A DNA stretch of 49,376 nt. It comes from a virus. Taxonomy: Duplodnaviria > Heunggongvirae > Uroviricota > Caudoviricetes. Positions 4,239-22,682 of this stretch are shown in pieces. Every line of letters starts with the position of its first letter. Within the stretch, counting starts at the first letter, position 1. A program made the translations under genes and the position numbers. The stretch spans positions 1 to 49,376 of IMG/VR virus record IMGVR_UViG_2531839433_000005. One strand, written 5' to 3'. A model generated the notes under the pieces. The model was not told the origin of the DNA. It made no database searches and was given only the letters and a program-made list of their open reading frames with translations.

Positions 4239-4800
4239 AATTATCTCCATTTTTACAAATGAACTTTGTTGATGCGGTGCCTGGTGCCTCCAGGTGACGT
4301 TAACCAGTTAACAATTAACGCCGGATACAGAGAACCCACCCATAACACTGTTTTTGGTTTTAACTGTTCCGCGTGCGCTTAGCCGCATTCACCGCATCAC
4401 AAAATTCACTTTAAAAAGGGCGGCAGAGCAGTCACGGAGTAAACTGATACCGCCAAACGCCACCAGAAAATTGATAACAGAGGGCGTTGTAGCGGGGTTG
4501 TCACTTAAGCGTATGGTCAACCTGACAACCCGGTGTCCTCAACGGGGAAGGAATAACCCCGCCATACTTACCGCCGCGCCATTTCGCGGATTGCCACAAC
4601 CGGAAGCGCACGGTCGAATTAAATTTAACGACACCGTACAGTGAGACGAACTTCGCCGTGCGCTTTCGCGTTATGCCCTGACTTTTCAGGAAAATGCCCT
4701 TTCAGTAAACTGTCAGTGCCGGATGCTCACCCGTGTCCGGCGCACGCACTCCACCTGACCCGTGGAGAACTCCTTAATTACCAACCCTCAGGAGGGTGAA

Positions 4801-6964: not shown

Positions 6965-7195
6965 ATGAAAAAATCAGAAGTATTAGGCTATTTTGGCGGA
7001 GTTGTTAAAACAGCCGCAGCTCTAGGAACGTCAAAAACCACAGTCAGCATGTGGGGGGAAGAGGTTCCGTGGAAATGGGCGTTGCTAATTCAGGCAGTCA
7101 CTGCCGGGGCGCTCAAATATGAGTTACACATACCGACGGTTGTCATTCCCGGTTCTGATCATAATCCGCCTTCTAACCAAGGGGGGGATTCATGA
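6965..7195 (+). CDS. Cro-like small HTH regulator
   Basis: 76-aa ORF divergent from cI with GGAG RBS; resembles Rac-type YdaS/Cro proteins as recalled. Confidence 0.6.
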   Translation: MKKSEVLGYFGGVVKTAAALGTSKTTVSMWGEEVPWKWALLIQAVTAGALKYELHIPTVVIPGSDHNPPSNQGGDS

Positions 7196-7617
7196 AAATC
7201 AAGCATGAACACATCCGCATGGCGATGAATGCCTGGGCGCATCCGGACGGCGAGAAAGTACCGGCTGCAGAGATTACCAAAGCGTATTTCGAGCTGGGAA
7301 TGACGTTCCCGGAACTGTATGACGACAGCCATCCGGAAGCCCTGGCTCGCAATACCCAGAAAATTTTCCGCTGGGTAGAGAAAGACACCCCTGATGCAGT
7401 TGAAAAAATTCAGGCGTTGTTACCAGCGATCGAAAAGGCAATGCCACCTTTGCTGGTGGCCAGAATGCGCAGCCACAGTTCTGCTTATTTTCGGGAGCTG
7501 GTGGAGACGCGGGAGCGACTGGTGAGAGACGCTGATGATTTTGTCGCAGTGGCAATCGCCGGTTTCAATCAGATGAACCGCGGTGGCCCGGCGGGAAATG
7601 CCGTGGTGATGCACTAA
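7192..7617 (+). CDS. CII-like / YdaT-like regulator
   Basis: 141-aa ORF translationally coupled to cro (ATGA overlap); N-terminus MKIKHEHI.. resembles the Rac YdaT family as recalled. Confidence 0.5.
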   Translation: MKIKHEHIRMAMNAWAHPDGEKVPAAEITKAYFELGMTFPELYDDSHPEALARNTQKIFRWVEKDTPDAVEKIQALLPAIEKAMPPLLVARMRSHSSAYFRELVETRERLVRDADDFVAVAIAGFNQMNRGGPAGNAVVMH

Positions 7618-16074: not shown

Positions 16075-16434
16075 ATGCTCATAGATTTGGTTTTACCTTA
16101 CCCGCCGACGGTGAACACTTACTGGCGACGCCGTGGCAGCACATATTTTATCTCGGAGGAGGGAAAGCGTTATCGCCGTGATGTGGCGCTTATTGTTCGC
16201 CAGCAGCGACTGAAATTAAAGCTGTCCGGACGGCTGGCGATAAAGGTGATTGCAGAGCCACCGGATAAACGTCGTCGTGACCTGGACAATATCCTGAAAG
16301 CACCACTGGATGCACTGACACATGCGGGGTTGCTTATCGACGACGAGCAGTTTGATGAAATCAATATTGTGCGCGGTCAGCTCGTTCCTGGTGGGCGACT
16401 GGGGATAAAAATCACAGAATTGGGGTGCGCATGA
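16075..16434 (+). CDS. rusA: RusA-family Holliday junction resolvase
   Basis: 119 aa; conserved RRRDLDN and acidic residues as in RusA. Confidence 0.8.
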   Translation: MLIDLVLPYPPTVNTYWRRRGSTYFISEEGKRYRRDVALIVRQQRLKLKLSGRLAIKVIAEPPDKRRRDLDNILKAPLDALTHAGLLIDDEQFDEINIVRGQLVPGGRLGIKITELGCA

Positions 16435-17120
16435 ATAACCAGTATTTACAGTTTGTGCGTGAGCAGCTCATTATCGCCACCGCTGATTTGAGTGGGGCAA
16501 CAAAAGGTCAGCTTGAAGCCTGGCAGGAGAATGCCATGTTTGATACAGGGCGTTACAGGCGTAAAAAAATCCGGTACCGAGATGAAGTGACCGGAAAAAT
16601 GATTACGCGGGATAATCCACCAATCCCGGGGAAACAATCGCTGGCGAAGGGGACGTCAATTCCTCTGGTCAGTCCGGTTGAGTTTTCGACATCATCGTGG
16701 CGGCGGGCTGTTCTGTCTCTTGAAGAACATCATAAAGCCTGGTTGTTATGGTGTTACAGCGGGAGTATTTGTTGGGAATATCAGATCGCGATAACACAGT
16801 GGGCGTGGAATGAATTTAATACTCAATCCGGTACCAGAAAAATTGCAGGGAAAACGCAGGAACGCCTGAAAAAATTAATCTGGCTGGCGGCGCAGGCAGT
16901 AAAAGCAGAACTTTTTGGTGGGGAAGGTTATGAATACCAGGAGCTGGCATTACTGGCGGGAGTGACAACTAAAAACTGGTCCAAAACATTTACTCGTCAC
17001 TGGGTTGCAATGAAACACATTTTTCACCGACTGGATAGTGAGGCTTTATTGTTTGTAATGAGAACACGTTCAAAACAAAAGGCGGCATTTTCAAAGCAAA
17101 GTGTTGCAAAAGTAGATTGA
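16425..17120 (+). CDS. Putative late-gene antiterminator Q
   Basis: 231-aa ORF immediately upstream of a promoter/terminator pair, tRNAs and lysis genes (canonical Q position); family assignment by position only. Confidence 0.5.
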   Translation: MRMNNQYLQFVREQLIIATADLSGATKGQLEAWQENAMFDTGRYRRKKIRYRDEVTGKMITRDNPPIPGKQSLAKGTSIPLVSPVEFSTSSWRRAVLSLEEHHKAWLLWCYSGSICWEYQIAITQWAWNEFNTQSGTRKIAGKTQERLKKLIWLAAQAVKAELFGGEGYEYQELALLAGVTTKNWSKTFTRHWVAMKHIFHRLDSEALLFVMRTRSKQKAAFSKQSVAKVD

Positions 17121-17330: not shown

Positions 17331-17406
17331 GGCCCTTTAGCTCAGTGGTGAGAGCGAGCGACTCATAATCGCCAGGTCGCTGGTTCAAATCCAGCAAGGG
17401 CCACCA
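17331..17406 (+). tRNA. tRNA with CAT anticodon (Ile2/Met type)
   Basis: 76 nt; acceptor GGCCCTT/AAGGGCC, D-arm TAGCTCAGTGG, anticodon loop CTCATAA, T-loop GGTTCAAATCC, 3' CCA; resembles E. coli ileX as recalled. Confidence 0.75.
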
Positions 17407-17407
17407 A

Positions 17408-17484
17408 CCGTCACCAGTTCATCAGGAAAGAGCGTCAACCCTTTAAGTTGAGTGTGCGAGGTTCGAGTCCCCGGTGGCGGTCCA
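17408..17484 (+). tRNA. Atypical tRNA-like element (possible anticodon TTT; may be a pseudo-tRNA)
   Basis: Acceptor CCGTCAC/GTGGCGG with one G-U pair, T-loop TTCGAGT, 3' TCCA; D-arm and anticodon loop (C at position 33) are non-canonical. Confidence 0.35.
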
Positions 17485-17486
17485 GT

Positions 17487-17562
<76 letters not shown>

Positions 17563-17565
17563 TAT

Positions 17566-17640
<75 letters not shown>

Positions 17641-17914
17641 GCATTTGAAATAAGCCTTATTGTATTGCAGCACTGGCGTATTTTTTATTACGTGGGAGCA
17701 GGTTGTTTTAAGAGACATTCTGTTCTCTGGCTATAATTTGAGGCCAGGTGTAGCCTCAGTGCTGATTTTTTTACGACAGCAGAATGGTGCATTATCGGTG
17801 GAGATTTTGTATTTCCTGGCAGGGTCGGTGATGCATCATTCCGATGTTGTAAGCATCGCTCAGAATAACGTTGAGATTAATCGCGTACTAAGCAAAACCT
17901 GGAAATACATCCTT

Positions 17915-17942
17915 AACCGCCGCACCAGGCGGTTTTTTTTAT
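17915..17942 (+). terminator. Rho-independent terminator
   Basis: CCGCC-GCACCA-GGCGG hairpin followed by 8 T. Confidence 0.5.
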
Positions 17943-18107
17943 TCATTTTTTTTTCATGGCTCGCTACGGCGGGCCTTTTTCATATCCTCGCCACACCCGG
18001 CGCATATCACATCAAATAACGCCGCGCAAAAGGCATCTGCGGGTGCCTTTGACGGGGTGTTTTTACGGGCCGCTGGTGGCCCTTTTTTATTTACAGGAGA
18101 AAAACGT

Positions 18108-18497
18108 ATGTCTGAACCCTTATCCGGTTCCGGCACGGCTGCGGCGCTCGGTGGGGCGACGGTGTACGGGCTGTTTACCGGAACGGATTTCGGGATTGTG
18201 TTTGGTGCGTTCGCCGGGGCGTTATTTGTGGCAACGATGCCGCAGGCGCTTTCAGTCTGGCGTGTGGTGGCGCATTTTTTGGTGTCGTTTATCGTCGGCG
18301 TGCTGGGGGCGCGCGTGCTGTCAGCCTGGATTGCATCAAAAACAGGGTATGACGGTACATCGGCAGATGCGCTGTGTGCGGTGCTGGTATCGGTGGTGTC
18401 GGTGAAGATTCTGTCGTTCATCCACCAGCAGGATATTGCATCGCTGGTGTCCGGTGTGTTCTCCCGTCTGCGGGGTGGAGGCGGTAATGTTAAGTAA
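18108..18497 (+). CDS. Putative holin (multi-TM membrane protein)
   Basis: 129 aa from ATG with RBS AGGAGA; several Gly/Ala-rich hydrophobic segments; first gene of lysis cassette; a GC hairpin with T-run lies immediately upstream. Confidence 0.55.
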   Translation: MSEPLSGSGTAAALGGATVYGLFTGTDFGIVFGAFAGALFVATMPQALSVWRVVAHFLVSFIVGVLGARVLSAWIASKTGYDGTSADALCAVLVSVVSVKILSFIHQQDIASLVSGVFSRLRGGGGNVK

Positions 18498-18762
18498 CCT
18501 TCCCGGATTACTGAATGTGGTGTTAAGCACGGTTATCGTGCTGACGCTCTTTTTTTATCGTCGTGGTGATTCCAGACATAAACCGCTGATGTCGTGGCTG
18601 GCCTGGCTGCTGATGCTGCTGTATGCCTTTGCGCCACTTTGTTATCTGTGTGGTCGCTTTCCACCCGGTAACTGGCTGGTCGTCCTGATTAACCTGGTGT
18701 TCTGCGTGCTGGTGATACGAGCACGCGGGAACGTATCAAAAATCCTTTCATTACGGAGGTGA
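18487..18762 (+). CDS. Second small membrane protein of lysis cassette (holin/antiholin-like)
   Basis: 91 aa, two or three hydrophobic helices; start overlaps holin stop, end overlaps endolysin start. Confidence 0.5.
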   Translation: MLSNLPGLLNVVLSTVIVLTLFFYRRGDSRHKPLMSWLAWLLMLLYAFAPLCYLCGRFPPGNWLVVLINLVFCVLVIRARGNVSKILSLRR

Positions 18763-18764
18763 GT

Positions 18765-19142
18765 ATGCCCGGTAAATTCAGATTCAGTCGTCGAAGTGAG
18801 AAAAATCTGGAGGGCGTCAAACCACAGCTGGTTGCTGTTGTTCGCCGTGCGCTGGAGCTGACGGAGGTTGACTTCGGTATTACGGAAGGCCTGCGCAGTA
18901 AGTATCGCCAGAAGCAGCTGGTCGCGGAAGGGAAAAGCCAGACCATGAACAGCCGCCACCTGACCGGTGATGCGGTGGATGTTGTGGCCTACATTGGTAG
19001 CCAGGTGTCATGGGACTGGCCTCTGTACGAGAAAATCGCGCAGGCATTTAAGCAGGCTGCCGCAGAGCTGGGAACTGCCATCGAATGGGGCGGGGACTGG
19101 AAAACACTGAAAGACGGGCCTCACTTTCAGTTGAAGCGCTAA
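18765..19142 (+). CDS. Endolysin, peptidase M15 family (L-alanyl-D-glutamate peptidase type)
   Basis: About 125 aa; motif SRHLTGDAVD typical of M15 zinc peptidases; GGAGG RBS; alternative GTG start at 18759. Confidence 0.75.
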   Translation: MPGKFRFSRRSEKNLEGVKPQLVAVVRRALELTEVDFGITEGLRSKYRQKQLVAEGKSQTMNSRHLTGDAVDVVAYIGSQVSWDWPLYEKIAQAFKQAAAELGTAIEWGGDWKTLKDGPHFQLKR

Positions 19143-19156
19143 TAACCAGGTGGTTT

Positions 19157-19339
19157 ATGAGCCGAAAACACTGGACACACAGAATGCCGCGAACGGCGGC
19201 GAAATGGGCACTGGTAGCGATACTGGTGCCTTTTTTCCTGGTGGGATGCGTTAGCCTGGATAAGGTGCGCCAGCTTTTCGATACGGCCTCGCAGGTCTGC
19301 GAAATTGTCGAAAGTGCCAGGCAGTGTATGCAGAACTGA
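19157..19339 (+). CDS. Small lipoprotein (possible spanin-like lysis accessory)
   Basis: 60 aa; signal peptide with lipobox FLVGC; directly follows the endolysin. Confidence 0.5.
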   Translation: MSRKHWTHRMPRTAAKWALVAILVPFFLVGCVSLDKVRQLFDTASQVCEIVESARQCMQN

Positions 19340-19402
19340 TCGCCTGTAAGAGCAGAATATTGTTGAATCTAAGTAAGCGGCTCGTCAGAACCGTATTGAT
19401 AT

Positions 19403-20974
19403 TTACTGAGAGCTCAGATCAACTTTCCAGGGCAACAGATCGCGTACCCGGTTTGCCGGCCAGTCCTGGATATGTTCAATGACGTAGCGCAGCCACTTTT
19501 CTGGCTCCACATTGTTCAGACGGCATGTGCCGATCAGCGAGTACAACACCGCCGCATGTTCACCACCGCTGTCGGAACCCGCGAACATCCACTTTTTCCG
19601 GCCTACGGCCACTCCCCGTAAGGCGTTCTCTGCGATGTTGTTGTCGATTTCCACCCAGCCATTACTGCAGTACACGTTCAGTGCATCCCACTGTTTCAGC
19701 AGGTATGCGAACGCTTTTGCCGTATCTGAGTGACGCGACAGTGTTTTCATCTGTTGCTGTATCCAGTCATACAGTGACTGCATCAGTGGCGCGGCTCTGG
19801 TTTTTCTTGCCGCCAGACGCTGTTCTGCTGAACAGCCCCGGACCTCTGCCTCGATGGCATACAGTTCACCGATACGCTGCAGGGCTTCCGTGGTGATGTC
19901 GGTGGGCGCTCTTGCATGCACATCGTGGATTTTTCTCCGGGCATGAGCCATACACGCGGCTTCCGTTATTCTGCCGGATTCGTATAACGCCCGGTAACCA
20001 CCGTAAGCATCGGCCTGAAGCACACCGCTGTAACCGGCCAGGTGATTTTGTGGATGGATACCTTTCCGGTCCGGACTGTACGCGAACCAGACCGCCGGGG
20101 GCATCTGTGAACCGGCGTTACGGTCATCACGGACGTAGACCCACAGCCGGGCTGTCCGGGTTTTACCGCTGCCCGGCTCCTGGACCGGGACGGGGATATC
20201 ATCAGCATGGACTTTACCGGGCATCAGCACATACTGGCGCAGGACGTCATACAGCGGCTCCAGTAGTTCAGCAACGGCACCTGTCCAGCGCCCCAGTGTG
20301 GCACGGCTCAGCTCCACACCCTGACGGCGGTATATCTCTGACTGGCGGTATAACGGCAGATGGTCTGCATATTTTCCGGTGACGACATGGGCCAGGAGCC
20401 CCGCTCCGGCATAACTGCGTGCAATGGGTTTTGAAGGTACTGGTGCCTGCACGATATGGTCGCACCGACAACAGGCCAGTTTCGGACGTTGTGTTTCGAT
20501 AACCTTAAAGGCGCTGCTGATAAGCTCCAGTTGCTCTGACACATCACATCCCAGAGAACTGAGTTCACCACCACAGGCAGGACAGCATTCCTCTTCCGGC
20601 CGGATAACCCGGGTTTCACGGGGAAGTGAGGCCGGTAACGGTTTACGGGCTGAAGACTGGCGCAGGGCGGATGGCAGTACCGGGTCATATTGCTCACCCA
20701 GCGTTTCCGCCATTTCTTCCTGAAGTGCGCTGATTCGCTCCTGTGCTTCCTGTATCTGCCGTTCGGTTTTTGCACGAAGTTTTTCTGAGCTTTTACCGAA
20801 CTGCATACGTTGCAGTTTCGCAACCAGCGCCTTCAGCCGGTTGATTTCGGAAGCATAAGCCGCCACCCGCTGTGAGAGCAGGCGGTTGTATTCAGCCATC
20901 TGGCGGATGGTGTCCTGTTGCGTCTGCAACAGTGCCCGCAGGCGGGCGTTCTCATGAGCAAGTGAGGTGTCCAT
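19403..20974 (-). CDS. IS66-family transposase (TnpC/orfC)
   Basis: 523 aa; N-terminal coiled-coil/leucine zipper, CxxC zinc-finger-like motifs, DDE-type core as in IS66 transposases. Confidence 0.85.
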
Positions 20975-20993
20975 ATCCTCACTTTACAACGGG

Positions 20994-21341
20994 TTATATG
21001 CGGATTCCAGCGCGTTCCGTTCGTTTCGGGTGCTTCCAGTTGATACCTTCAAGAAGCATGGATAACTGAGCCGGAGTAAGGTGCACCTTGCCGTCACGGG
21101 TGACTGGCCAGACGAAGCGGCCCCGCTCCAGGCGTTTGGTGAAGAGGCACAGTCCGTCACTGTCAGCCCACAACACTTTTATCTGGTCACCCCGGCGTCC
21201 GCGGAAGATGAACAGGTGTCCGGAGAACGGGTCATCCTTCAGGACGTTCTGAACTTTTGATGCCAGGCCGTTAAAGCCATTTCGCATATCGGTGATACCT
21301 GCAACCAGCCAGATACGCGAACCTGCAGGGAGAGATATCAT
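20994..21341 (-). CDS. IS66 accessory protein TnpB (orfB)
   Basis: 115-aa ORF in the characteristic position, overlapping the orfA stop. Confidence 0.8.
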   Translation of the reverse strand: MISLPAGSRIWLVAGITDMRNGFNGLASKVQNVLKDDPFSGHLFIFRGRRGDQIKVLWADSDGLCLFTKRLERGRFVWPVTRDGKVHLTPAQLSMLLEGINWKHPKRTERAGIRI

Positions 21342-22018
21342 CAGTGGCTGCTCCCTTTTATTTCGCGGATAAGTGTCTGTAATAACGCCGGCGTCAGTTT
21401 ACCTTTAAGCCTGAGAGTTCCGGCCGGCAGAACCAGCTCACAACACAGACTGTCGGACGGTGTATTTATCTGCTCTGGTTCCTGTGCGGGGGCCGGGATT
21501 TTATTATCCGGCTCCGGCGTTAACGTCACGGGAAGCAGTGCCGGCATATTTTTTCCGGAAGGCAGCAGGCCACCTTTCCGGTATTGATGGCGCCAGTTGA
21601 AGAGCAGGTTATCGTTGATTCCGTTTTCCCGGGCGATCTGCGCCACACAGGCTCCGGGCTGCAGTGACTGCTCCACTAAGGCGATTTTAAACTCATAAGG
21701 GAAGTTGGGCCGCCGGGGACGTTTTTTTACCACGGGGGCTTCGGATATAACGGTGCTTTCAGGACGTACGACTGGTACCGTGGAAAATTGTCCGTAAAGG
21801 CAGGCATCAAGTTCCTGCTCCGACATGCCTGCGGGCAAAGGCCACGAAAGGCCAGCTCTCCGAAAGCGCACGAACATACTACAAACTGTTGATTTTGGTA
21901 CACCCAGGCGACGCCCGGCCACAACCCGGGGTAAATGTTCTTCAAAGTGAAGACGTAAAGCTTCAGTGATCCAGGTCCGGTGTTTCATACGATAGTGTCC
22001 ATTAAAAATGATGGACAT
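21341..22018 (-). CDS. IS66 accessory protein TnpA (orfA)
   Basis: 225-aa ORF at the upstream end of the IS; HTH-like N-terminus. Confidence 0.7.
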   Translation of the reverse strand: MSIIFNGHYRMKHRTWITEALRLHFEEHLPRVVAGRRLGVPKSTVCSMFVRFRRAGLSWPLPAGMSEQELDACLYGQFSTVPVVRPESTVISEAPVVKKRPRRPNFPYEFKIALVEQSLQPGACVAQIARENGINDNLLFNWRHQYRKGGLLPSGKNMPALLPVTLTPEPDNKIPAPAQEPEQINTPSDSLCCELVLPAGTLRLKGKLTPALLQTLIREIKGSSH

Positions 22019-22133
22019 TATTTTTGTAGAGCCGGAGGAAACAGACCAGACGGTTTAAATGAGCCGGTTACGAATCTAAATTTACTTTGAACAGTGGCCC
22101 GGATGGAAAGGGCATCTAAATAGGAGCAGAAAA

Positions 22134-22343
22134 ATGTTAACTGTAAAAGTCATGTCTCAAAATGGTGGGGAAGAGCTCCATTGCGGGCGTAGCATTGGCT
22201 ATCATCCAGAGCAGCGGAGTATTGCCGTATCGGGAAAGGATGGGAAAGTCATTCTGAAAGATGGAGATATTGCTTATGTAATGAACCAAAACGCTCAAAT
22301 AATATCTGTTTATCGGCCCAATAATAGTCAGAAAAACATTTGA
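22134..22343 (+). CDS. Hypothetical small protein (AT-rich)
   Basis: 69-aa ORF with AGGAG RBS in an AT-rich segment between the IS and cos. Confidence 0.4.
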   Translation: MLTVKVMSQNGGEELHCGRSIGYHPEQRSIAVSGKDGKVILKDGDIAYVMNQNAQIISVYRPNNSQKNI

Positions 22344-22466: not shown

Positions 22467-22682
22467 ATGGTTTTTAAACACTATTACGTGAACAAAAATG
22501 CTCAGAGCAATGGCGATCATGAGGTGCATGCTGAGGAATGTTCATATCTTCCTGCTGTAGCTAACCGCGATTACCTTGGTTACTATAGTGATTGTTCTTC
22601 GGCGGTAACAGAGGCAAAGGCCAAAGGATATTCCCGGGTGAATGGTTGCTATTGGTGTGCCAATAAGTGCCACACGTCTTAA
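22467..22682 (+). CDS. Hypothetical small Cys-rich protein
   Basis: 71 aa with C..C..CYWCANKCH cysteine cluster; followed by a terminator. Confidence 0.45.
   Translation: MVFKHYYVNKNAQSNGDHEVHAEECSYLPAVANRDYLGYYSDCSSAVTEAKAKGYSRVNGCYWCANKCHTS

Follow-up and report, generated by a model that had tools for sequence, protein, structure and literature searches.

How a phage that does not carry the S/R/Rz lysis genes breaches the outer membrane of its host is the question raised by a lysis cassette at positions 18108–19339 of the Caudoviricetes record IMGVR_UViG_2531839433_000005 (49,376 nt; this whole stretch of DNA is called the window below). A prophage of the enterotoxigenic Escherichia coli (ETEC) strain 504239 (CP025859) matches the window with 100% identity, as do several other ETEC genomes, and the head and tail genes are lambda-like. 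An earlier reading made from the letters alone (the sequence-only reading) had described the lysis genes as different from S/R/Rz and as comprising two small membrane proteins, a small M15-family endolysin and a short lipoprotein, with no evident inner-membrane spanin (i-spanin) to act as its partner. The analysis presented here bears out this composition. Judged by its homologies, the cassette is the known phiP27-type lysis module, with about 90% nucleotide identity to L28–L31 of phage phiP27, in a lambda-like ETEC prophage and downstream of the antiterminator gene Q. We put at roughly even odds (about 0.5) the reading that the lipoprotein performs the outer-membrane step of lysis without a canonical i-spanin, either alone or via a host component.

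The identities and the order of the genes, from holins through endopeptidase to the presumed outer-membrane step, are well supported. The cassette consists of four co-oriented, closely packed genes (Table 1), whose open reading frames (ORFs) all lie where they had been placed beforehand, and which match their families with E-values from 1e-21 to 1e-75, far beyond chance. Both small membrane proteins belong to holin families, with Pfam scores above the gathering cut-offs (79.9 bits against 26.4 for Phage_holin_8, and 75 against 25.4 for Phage_holin_3_7), multiple hydrophobic spans and an adjoining endolysin gene. The hydropathy scan shows about 3–4 spans in the Phage_holin_8 protein, and three spans plus a basic C-terminus in the Phage_holin_3_7 protein. 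An AGGAG Shine-Dalgarno sequence lies 5′ of the ATG at 18108, and the second holin gene overlaps the first by 11 nt. Some annotators start the Phage_holin_8 gene at an internal GTG (18279–18497), which raises the possibility of a dual-start holin/antiholin arrangement; two further PHROGs cover this protein in part, phrog_16047 (73 aa) matching only residues 58–127 and phrog_21855 only residues 1–46.

The endolysin scores 48 bits against PF13539 (cut-off 25) and matches solved L-Ala-D-Glu endopeptidases, namely 23ri (1e-43), 8q2g, Serratia ChiX (5opz, 9e-43) and the T5 endolysin (2mxz, 2e-23). The zinc motif H65-x6-D72 ... H120 is present, and the SRHLTGDAVD from which the M15 family had been recognised corresponds to residues 63–72. 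The protein is thus predicted to be an M15C-type L-Ala-D-Glu endopeptidase, with a bond specificity taken from its homologues. No hydrophobic segment was detected by the hydropathy scan, N-terminus included, so that the endolysin appears to be neither a signal-anchor-release (SAR) nor a secreted enzyme, and to be of the canonical, holin-dependent kind.

The last gene encodes a 60-aa prolipoprotein, which reads MSRKHWTHRMPRTAAKWALVAILVPFFLVG followed by a mature part of about 30 aa, CVSLDKVRQLFDTASQVCEIVESARQCMQN. It displays a basic n-region, a hydrophobic core and an LVGC lipobox, and the mature part contains the conserved residues Cys48 and Cys57. The FLVGC lipobox pointed out in the sequence-only reading occupies residues 27–31 (Cys31 codon at 19247–19249), and the prediction of membrane spans and signal peptides that had been recommended with it, carried out as a hydropathy and lipobox scan, returned the holin spans, a soluble endolysin and the lipobox at Cys31. 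The protein is complete and not truncated, since phrog_7528 (function unknown) matches it from end to end (60/60 residues, E 1e-35); no Pfam (E up to 0.1) or NCBIfam family was found for it. The gene has an AGGTGG Shine-Dalgarno sequence and follows the endolysin gene after a gap of 14 nt. Across the family L-x-G-C is invariant and Cys48 and Cys57 are nearly so, and divergent members, with mature lengths of 29–35 residues, keep the pattern Cys(lipid)-x16-Cys-x8-Cys. The +2 position is Val in the window and Ala, Thr, Gly, Ser or Glu in the relatives, and never Asp. As in an outer-membrane spanin subunit (o-spanin), there is a lipobox and no inner-membrane retention signal, and the protein is predicted to reside at the outer membrane.

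The lipoprotein gene is a real, selected protein-coding gene under purifying selection. Its mean ratio of nonsynonymous to synonymous polymorphism (pN/pS) is 0.19 over 49 unique alleles, to be compared with 0.11 for the endolysin gene and 0.28 and 0.36 for the holin genes, and all of its parts are constrained (0.17 in the N-terminal extension, 0.24 in the signal peptide and 0.16 in the mature part). The mature lipoprotein is moderately amphipathic (hydrophobic moment of about 0.5), with a net charge of −1, and is modelled by AlphaFold as one long helix, with low confidence (pLDDT 68).

Two in-frame ATGs, at 19157 (Met1) and 19184 (Met10, giving 51 aa), are conserved in 88 of 88 and 85 of 88 loci, respectively; both would lead to the same mature lipoprotein, with n-regions that differ in length and charge. 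An 84-aa form starting from an ATG at 19085 was discarded, as it extends over the 3′ end of the endolysin gene and disappears where inserts intervene, and as the PHROG profile and most homologues have 60 or 51 aa. The signal-peptide coding part of the ORF also contains a strong terminator-like hairpin (19206..19231, + strand), formed by an 11-bp stem followed by T6. This hairpin is kept almost base for base in about 50 alleles, including that of Lelliottia (56% protein identity), and synonymous divergence is lower in this region (pS of 0.125 for codons 10–31 against about 0.23). It might be an internal terminator limiting expression to Q-antiterminated transcripts, or a recombination joint.

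To look for a spanin partner, we considered all ATG, GTG and TTG starts of the 49-kb window in its six frames. Among these ORFs, only the lipoprotein has a lipobox, in agreement with its designation as the only spanin-like candidate, and the only ORFs with a single N-terminal transmembrane domain (TMD) are HokD and obvious antisense artefacts. The search of all frames of 18760–19370 for an embedded or overlapping spanin gene, which had also been recommended, yielded no ORF with a TMD or hydrophobic segment, and the canonical i-/o-spanin pair that would have contradicted the sequence-only reading did not turn up. Lambda Rz and Rz1 gave no match to the window by tblastn, and there is no spanin annotation in the identical record produced by the Prokaryotic Genome Annotation Pipeline (PGAP). 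The comparison was extended to a set of loci assembled from 80 IMG/VR loci, 4 genome loci, annotated phage records and the contigs with the most divergent homologues, of which 92 have a lipoprotein homologue. The heuristic scan, which took in the window, the flanks of these 92 loci (up to 4 kb per side) and, as complete genomes, phiP27 and phiSTEC1575-Stx2k, found no candidate for an i-spanin or a unimolecular spanin (u-spanin).

Several individual candidates were examined and rejected. The +3-frame ORF at 19150–19254, the counterpart of phiP27 L32, is a wrong frame of the lipoprotein gene, as judged from pN/pS. The 69-aa and 71-aa ORFs that lie 3′ of the lipoprotein gene and before terS (phrog_3909 and phrog_4298) have no TMD, and the ORFs downstream of the lipoprotein gene in loci L092, L094 and L095 do not encode type II membrane proteins. 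Distant spanin genes elsewhere in the prophage, in a T4-like arrangement, were not found in the window.

Set against known systems, the lipoprotein resembles lambda Rz1 in being a small lipoprotein (60 aa; the mature part of Rz1 has 40 aa) encoded at the 3′ end of a lysis cassette, with additional cysteines that might engage in disulfide bonds. Rz1 is proline-rich and unstructured, whereas the mature part of the window lipoprotein is predicted to be helical, has no proline and shows no sequence similarity to it. In contrast to lambda, where Rz is the partner, the lipoprotein has no type II inner-membrane partner, either embedded, overlapped or separated, and no protein of this type with a periplasmic coiled-coil is encoded near its gene. 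The T1 u-spanin gp11 (about 131 aa) is also the product of a single gene in the spanin position and also has an N-terminal lipobox; the window lipoprotein differs in having no hydrophobic segment after Cys31 that could serve as a C-terminal TMD and, with 60 aa and only about 30 mature residues, is far too short for the periplasm. The phiKT gp28 'disruptin' is presented (bioRxiv 10.1101/515445) as a cationic antimicrobial-type peptide of a spanin-less coliphage, and is likewise a single small protein proposed in place of spanins. The window lipoprotein is instead lipid-anchored, and its slightly negative mature part would not qualify it as a disruptin on that description.

Serratia ChiX and the endolysins of T5 and Salmonella phage Solent are close homologues of the window endolysin, with 71% identity in the case of Solent. 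Beyond its endolysin gene, Solent carries a small holin/antiholin gene and after that an overlapped i-/o-spanin pair, so annotated by a group that specialises in lysis, whereas in the window the lipoprotein gene comes directly after the endolysin gene and there is no spanin pair. The Solent pair thus lies one small gene beyond a 71%-identical endolysin, which places the lipoprotein roughly where close cassettes have their spanins. This suggests that the lipoprotein replaces spanins by position.

The closest named phage is the Stx2e phage phiP27, which has the same four genes in the same order (L28–L30 and an unannotated lipoprotein gene at 20706–20861), with amino-acid identities to the window of 98% for the endolysin and 88% for the lipoprotein. 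It differs from the window, a lambda-like siphovirus prophage, in being a myovirus with stx2e, and it has a 492-nt insert between the endolysin and lipoprotein genes, which the window and most relatives do not have. In the phiP27 record L31 and L32 are annotated in wrong frames, and the lipoprotein gene is missed. Kongari et al. 2018 (PMC6139136) described phiP27 as having a "separated" two-component spanin, with an i-spanin of 64 aa (NC_003356 20348–20542, 32-aa periplasmic part) and an o-spanin of 51 aa (NC_003356 20706–20861, 30-aa mature part, 83% helix in their tables). Each of these is a singleton family in that census, and the pair is the shortest of 528 systems, "as short as 62 residues" (PMC6139136).

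The phiP27 o-spanin, listed there as the singleton 'PhiP27' o-spanin family, is the homologue of the window lipoprotein, read from the second Met, and the window lipoprotein belongs to this family. The 64-aa ORF of the proposed i-spanin lies inside the 492-nt insert, has a TTG start, belongs to no PHROG family and was found by tblastn in 1 of 91 loci. It is wholly antisense to an unannotated 90-aa ATG ORF (phiP27 20332–20604; 4273–4545 of locus L001), whose match to phrog_36812 (E 5e-20) is full-length. Another locus, L061, has kept a homologue of this 90-aa gene (45% identity) at the same place, and the sense-strand ORF there has only 36 aa. The start codon, the missing PHROG family, the single occurrence, the location in an insert and the antisense position to a conserved gene make the phiP27 i-spanin doubtful: it is most likely a shadow ORF, and phiP27 would then have no recognisable i-spanin. 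According to a survey of Shiga toxin (Stx) phages, 277 of 279 carry a member of the Rz gene family, and the two Stx2e phages of cluster C have in its place the metallopeptidase endolysin and a classical holin.

The lipoprotein family is small and nearly confined to Enterobacteriaceae: a hidden Markov model profile search of 1.84 billion representatives gave only 24 clusters at 50% identity, and those whose source was checked are enterobacterial and none is annotated. A word-indexed search gave 130 clusters of homologues, almost all from E. coli, with others from Salmonella, Cronobacter, Citrobacter and Yersinia, and a scan of species-representative genomes gave only 4 loci, one of which (Cellvibrionaceae) is probably spurious. 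The cassette module is also present in phiSTEC1575-Stx2k, in a phage deposited as Actinobacillus vB_Apl-pPE4 and, in part, in the LT-IIb phage SerU. Among 5,426 complete E. coli genomes, 581 match parts of a 1,751-nt probe in which the cassette is included, and 123 of these match at least 80% of the probe in one piece.

The lipoprotein gene is consistently linked to lysis genes. Close to half of the 92 loci (about 45) are compact, with a gap of 17 nt or less between the endolysin and lipoprotein genes; likewise, 45 have an M15 endolysin and no accessory gene, and in 37 of these the gap is exactly 14 nt. In twelve loci the M15 endolysin is accompanied by a small tail-anchored membrane protein (phrog_4493). 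In about 30, an endolysin of the GH108 type takes the place of M15, together with phrog_4493 or with phrog_1115 (with or without a 44-aa TMD protein, phrog_4906), and a few loci carry unrelated insertions, either KilA-N genes or the reverse-strand ORF of phiP27. The most divergent homologues lie directly 3′ of an endolysin gene as well: in L092 the order is Phage_holin_3_1, M15 and lipoprotein; in Lelliottia (L090) a single 117-aa holin, GH108 and lipoprotein, whose gene overlaps the endolysin gene by about 20 nt; and in the Mu-like L095 and L096 holin_8, holin_3_7, GH108 and lipoprotein, with a 4-nt overlap in L095. The lipoprotein gene is therefore found downstream of the endolysin gene across three holin sets and two endolysin types, adjoining it in the compact loci and beyond inserts in the rest, and this linkage spans three virion types (lambda-like siphovirus, phiP27 myovirus and Mu-like). 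Identical mature lipoproteins occur in compact and in accessory-bearing cassettes, with either endolysin type.

The phrog_4493 and phrog_1115 proteins, not encoded in the window, are tiny membrane proteins with a variable N-terminus and a conserved C-terminal TMD (...AFAIRLVAVAVLIWAVRWW); examples are found at L035 3662–3996, L038 3826–3999 and L006 3507–3680. One or the other lies just 5′ of the lipoprotein gene in about 41 of the 92 loci, and phrog_4493 ends 1 nt before the lipoprotein start. They are components of the lysis cassette in these loci, and possible partners or regulators. The endolysin–lipoprotein junction is an insertion hot spot, where KilA-N genes, the reverse-strand ORF and small ORFs are found (L001, L006, L007, L065 and L088); toxin genes (stx2e, stx2k and LT-IIb) and terB are located at other borders of the phiP27-type cassette.

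From these data the following sequence of events can be proposed. This phiP27-type cassette would be expressed late, in a Q-dependent manner, and the two co-translated holin-family proteins would permeabilise the inner membrane. The soluble M15C endopeptidase would then escape through the holes and cut the stem peptides of the peptidoglycan. The lipoprotein would be exported by Sec, lipidated at Cys31 and, since its +2 residue is not Asp, delivered by Lol to the outer membrane, into the inner leaflet. There its 30-residue helical Cys-x8-Cys mature domain would carry out the outer-membrane step without a canonical phage i-spanin, alone or via a host envelope component. The assignment of this step to the lipoprotein comes from its cassette position, from the coupling and co-expression of its gene with that of the endolysin, and from the fact that it does not depend on tail type; because no phage partner is conserved across the contexts, the protein is proposed to act alone or to use a host component. 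Both its role as an outer-membrane disruptor and its mode of action are inferred.

An alternative that would preserve the two-component scheme is that the lipoprotein is the o-subunit of a pair whose inner-membrane member is non-canonical and has gone unrecognised, be it phrog_4493/1115 (with or without phrog_4906) or a holin-family protein. The window cassette would then have lost its partner or use a holin, and its outer-membrane step might be impaired. The phrog_4493/1115 proteins would be the best candidates for this role, given their presence, with the conserved C-terminal TMD and an end 1 nt before the lipoprotein start, in some 41 of the 92 loci, and Kongari et al. 2018 (PMC6139136), who class phiP27 as a separated pair, allow other i-spanin topologies. 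Nevertheless, the compact form without an accessory gene is the commonest one and is also that of the most divergent contexts (Citrobacter L089, Lelliottia L090, L092 and the Mu-like L095), and there is no co-variation, as mature lipoproteins are identical with and without accessory genes. Furthermore, the accessory proteins have at most about 15–30 non-membrane residues, and their charge distribution would favour a cytoplasmic N-terminus; no holin type is common to all contexts; and the i-spanin published for phiP27 occurs only in that phage, with its TTG start, no PHROG and the phrog_36812 ORF on the opposite strand. A non-canonical phage partner is therefore judged unlikely.

The lipoprotein could also be a late accessory protein, such as a modifier of lysis timing or of the envelope, or an exclusion or receptor-masking protein like T5 Llp or Cor, in phages that are truly spanin-less and rely on the endolysin plus osmotic or shear forces. 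In about 13% of the phages that infect Gram-negative hosts no spanin can be identified, and in 31 genomes a lipoprotein occurs without a linked i-spanin (PMC6139136); the unrelated inserts at the endolysin–lipoprotein junction show that the gene order tolerates uncoupling, and the lipoprotein matches no known lysis family. What makes this account improbable is that the lipoprotein gene runs in the same direction as the endolysin gene and often shows translational coupling to it, unlike an independently expressed insert, and that the Solent spanin pair occupies roughly the same place at the 3′ end of its cassette. The linkage across three virion types is to lysis genes and not to tail or receptor-binding genes, and this independence from tail type disfavours a receptor-masking role. 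A third option draws on the colicin lysis proteins (bacteriocin release proteins, BRPs) and entericidin B, tiny lipoproteins with mature parts of about 25–35 aa that permeabilise the envelope or cause lysis and are encoded by the last gene of an induced operon. Acting in this manner, the lipoprotein would permeabilise the envelope indirectly, for instance via the host phospholipase PldA, and not by membrane fusion. The likeness is one of format: the precursor has about 50–60 aa and the mature part about 30 aa, and the gene is the last in an operon induced late or by stress. The unusually long and basic n-region of the signal peptide may be added to this. There is no detectable sequence relationship: 25 members of the lipoprotein family had no match to Pfam, Lysis_col and Entericidin included, even at E-values up to 10, and the Cys-x16-Cys-x8-Cys pattern is specific to this family. 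The helical mature part with two conserved cysteines is also unlike the Gly/Ser/Thr-rich BRPs, and we regard this option as very improbable.

The reading that we favour, in which the lipoprotein acts at the outer membrane with no canonical i-spanin, has itself a number of points against it. A mature domain of about 30 residues cannot bridge the periplasm as a spanin does, its net charge of −1 is not the cationic character of the phiKT disruptin, and the low-confidence AlphaFold model offers no mechanistic clue. The TMD and lipobox scans were simple hydropathy and regular-expression heuristics. The phrog_4493/1115 gene abutting the lipoprotein start in about 41 of the 92 relatives could be a non-canonical partner that is missing from the window. 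This particular prophage may be defective or decaying, as it has frameshifted cro and tail-tip (gpJ) genes and carries an insertion sequence (IS). Finally, a literature search found no experimental work on the lipoprotein or on any member of its family, and a 2025 paper on an Stx2e holin does not mention spanins or lipoproteins.

The cassette is preceded by Q, tRNA genes, a promoter-like site and terminator-like hairpins (Table 1), and therefore probably starts a Q-dependent late operon. A consensus scan identified 12 terminator-like sites in the region against 3.3 expected, and the segment at 17708–18082 may act as the Q-dependent leader. PGAP places a 'hypothetical protein' at 17759–18019, across the leader hairpins; this ORF is probably non-coding late leader (6S-RNA-like) and not a gene. 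The tRNA with the CAT anticodon is Met according to ARAGORN and Ile according to PGAP, and the tRNA-Lys(TTT) at 17408–17484, between it and tRNA-Thr, is predicted by ARAGORN and absent from the identical PGAP record, which has 3 of the 4 tRNAs. The same record shows frameshifts in cro and in the tail-tip gene J, as well as a partial dicB (window 6965–7208 and 38497–41975).

Table 1 Features of the lysis cassette and its surroundings (window coordinates)
Feature	Position	Strand	Evidence
Holin-family protein 1 (Phage_holin_8), 129 aa	18108..18497	+	PF16931 E 2e-22; phrog_198 holin E 4e-42; hydropathy
Holin-family protein 2 (Phage_holin_3_7, "putative 3TM holin"), 91 aa	18487..18762	+	PF05449 E 5e-21; phrog_217 holin E 6e-36
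M15C L-alanyl-D-glutamate endopeptidase endolysin (predicted), 125 aa	18765..19142	+	PF13539 Peptidase_M15_4; phrog_465 endolysin E 6e-75
Prolipoprotein, 60 aa	19157..19339	+	phrog_7528; lipobox L-V-G-C; pN/pS 0.19
Q antiterminator	16431..17120	+	PF06323 E 9e-92; phrog_304; PGAP 'bacteriophage antitermination protein Q'
Four tRNAs between Q and lysis genes (CAT anticodon; Lys-TTT; Thr-TGT; Gly-TCC)	17331..17640	+	ARAGORN
Probable late leader	17708..18082	+	Sigma-70-like promoter 17708–17737, then terminator-like hairpins 17915–17934, 17958–17975, 18067–18082
IS66-family element (ISCro1-like; tnpA, tnpB, DDE transposase)	19373..22071	-	PGAP names; ends and duplication read from sequence
Two small soluble ORFs between cassette and terS	22134–22343 (phrog_3909); 22467–22682 (phrog_4298, Cys-rich)	+	No TMD

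The IS66 element that the sequence-only reading had noted immediately downstream is indeed located there. It has the tnpA, tnpB and DDE transposase genes of this family, terminal inverted repeats that start with GTAA and an 8-bp target duplication, GAATCTAA, at 19365–19372 and 22072–22079. The element begins at 19373 with GTAAGCGGCTC and finishes at 22071 with GAGCCGGTTAC, its ends being noted as GTAAGCGGCTC and GTAACCGGCTC. An empty site with a single copy of GAATCTAA is present in E. coli E24377A, and IS-free relatives align up to window position 19372. In these relatives, E24377A included, the order is the same: the lipoprotein gene, the 69-aa ORF, a spacer of about 850 nt and terS. The possibility that IS66 destroyed an i-spanin gene is ruled out by the intergenic insertion with its 8-bp duplication and by the intact order in the IS-free relatives; the element interrupts nothing and is irrelevant to the missing i-spanin.

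The cassette type was already known, as was the in silico labelling of its lipoprotein as an o-spanin for phiP27. What is new is that no canonical i-spanin was found in any context examined, and that the published phiP27 partner is probably an artefact. A probable mis-assignment in the spanin census is also corrected: the phiP27 i-spanin was there the extreme outlier by which the lower bound of "periplasmic length" for two-component spanins was set. More tentatively, and at less than even odds, the lipoprotein could be the founder of a further class, a stand-alone lipid-anchored disruptor that is neither a spanin nor a cationic disruptin and perhaps works via a host protein, with the two-component assignment of phiP27 being an artefact. 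How spanin-less phages breach the outer membrane is an acknowledged open question, for which only one alternative, the phiKT disruptin, has been described. The lipoprotein is a candidate found in E. coli itself, encoded by a single 183-bp gene and present also in Stx2e, Stx2k and LT-II toxin phages, and its family thus offers a candidate, tractable in E. coli, for another way of disrupting the outer membrane, a step that in toxin-converting phages also governs the release of the toxin.

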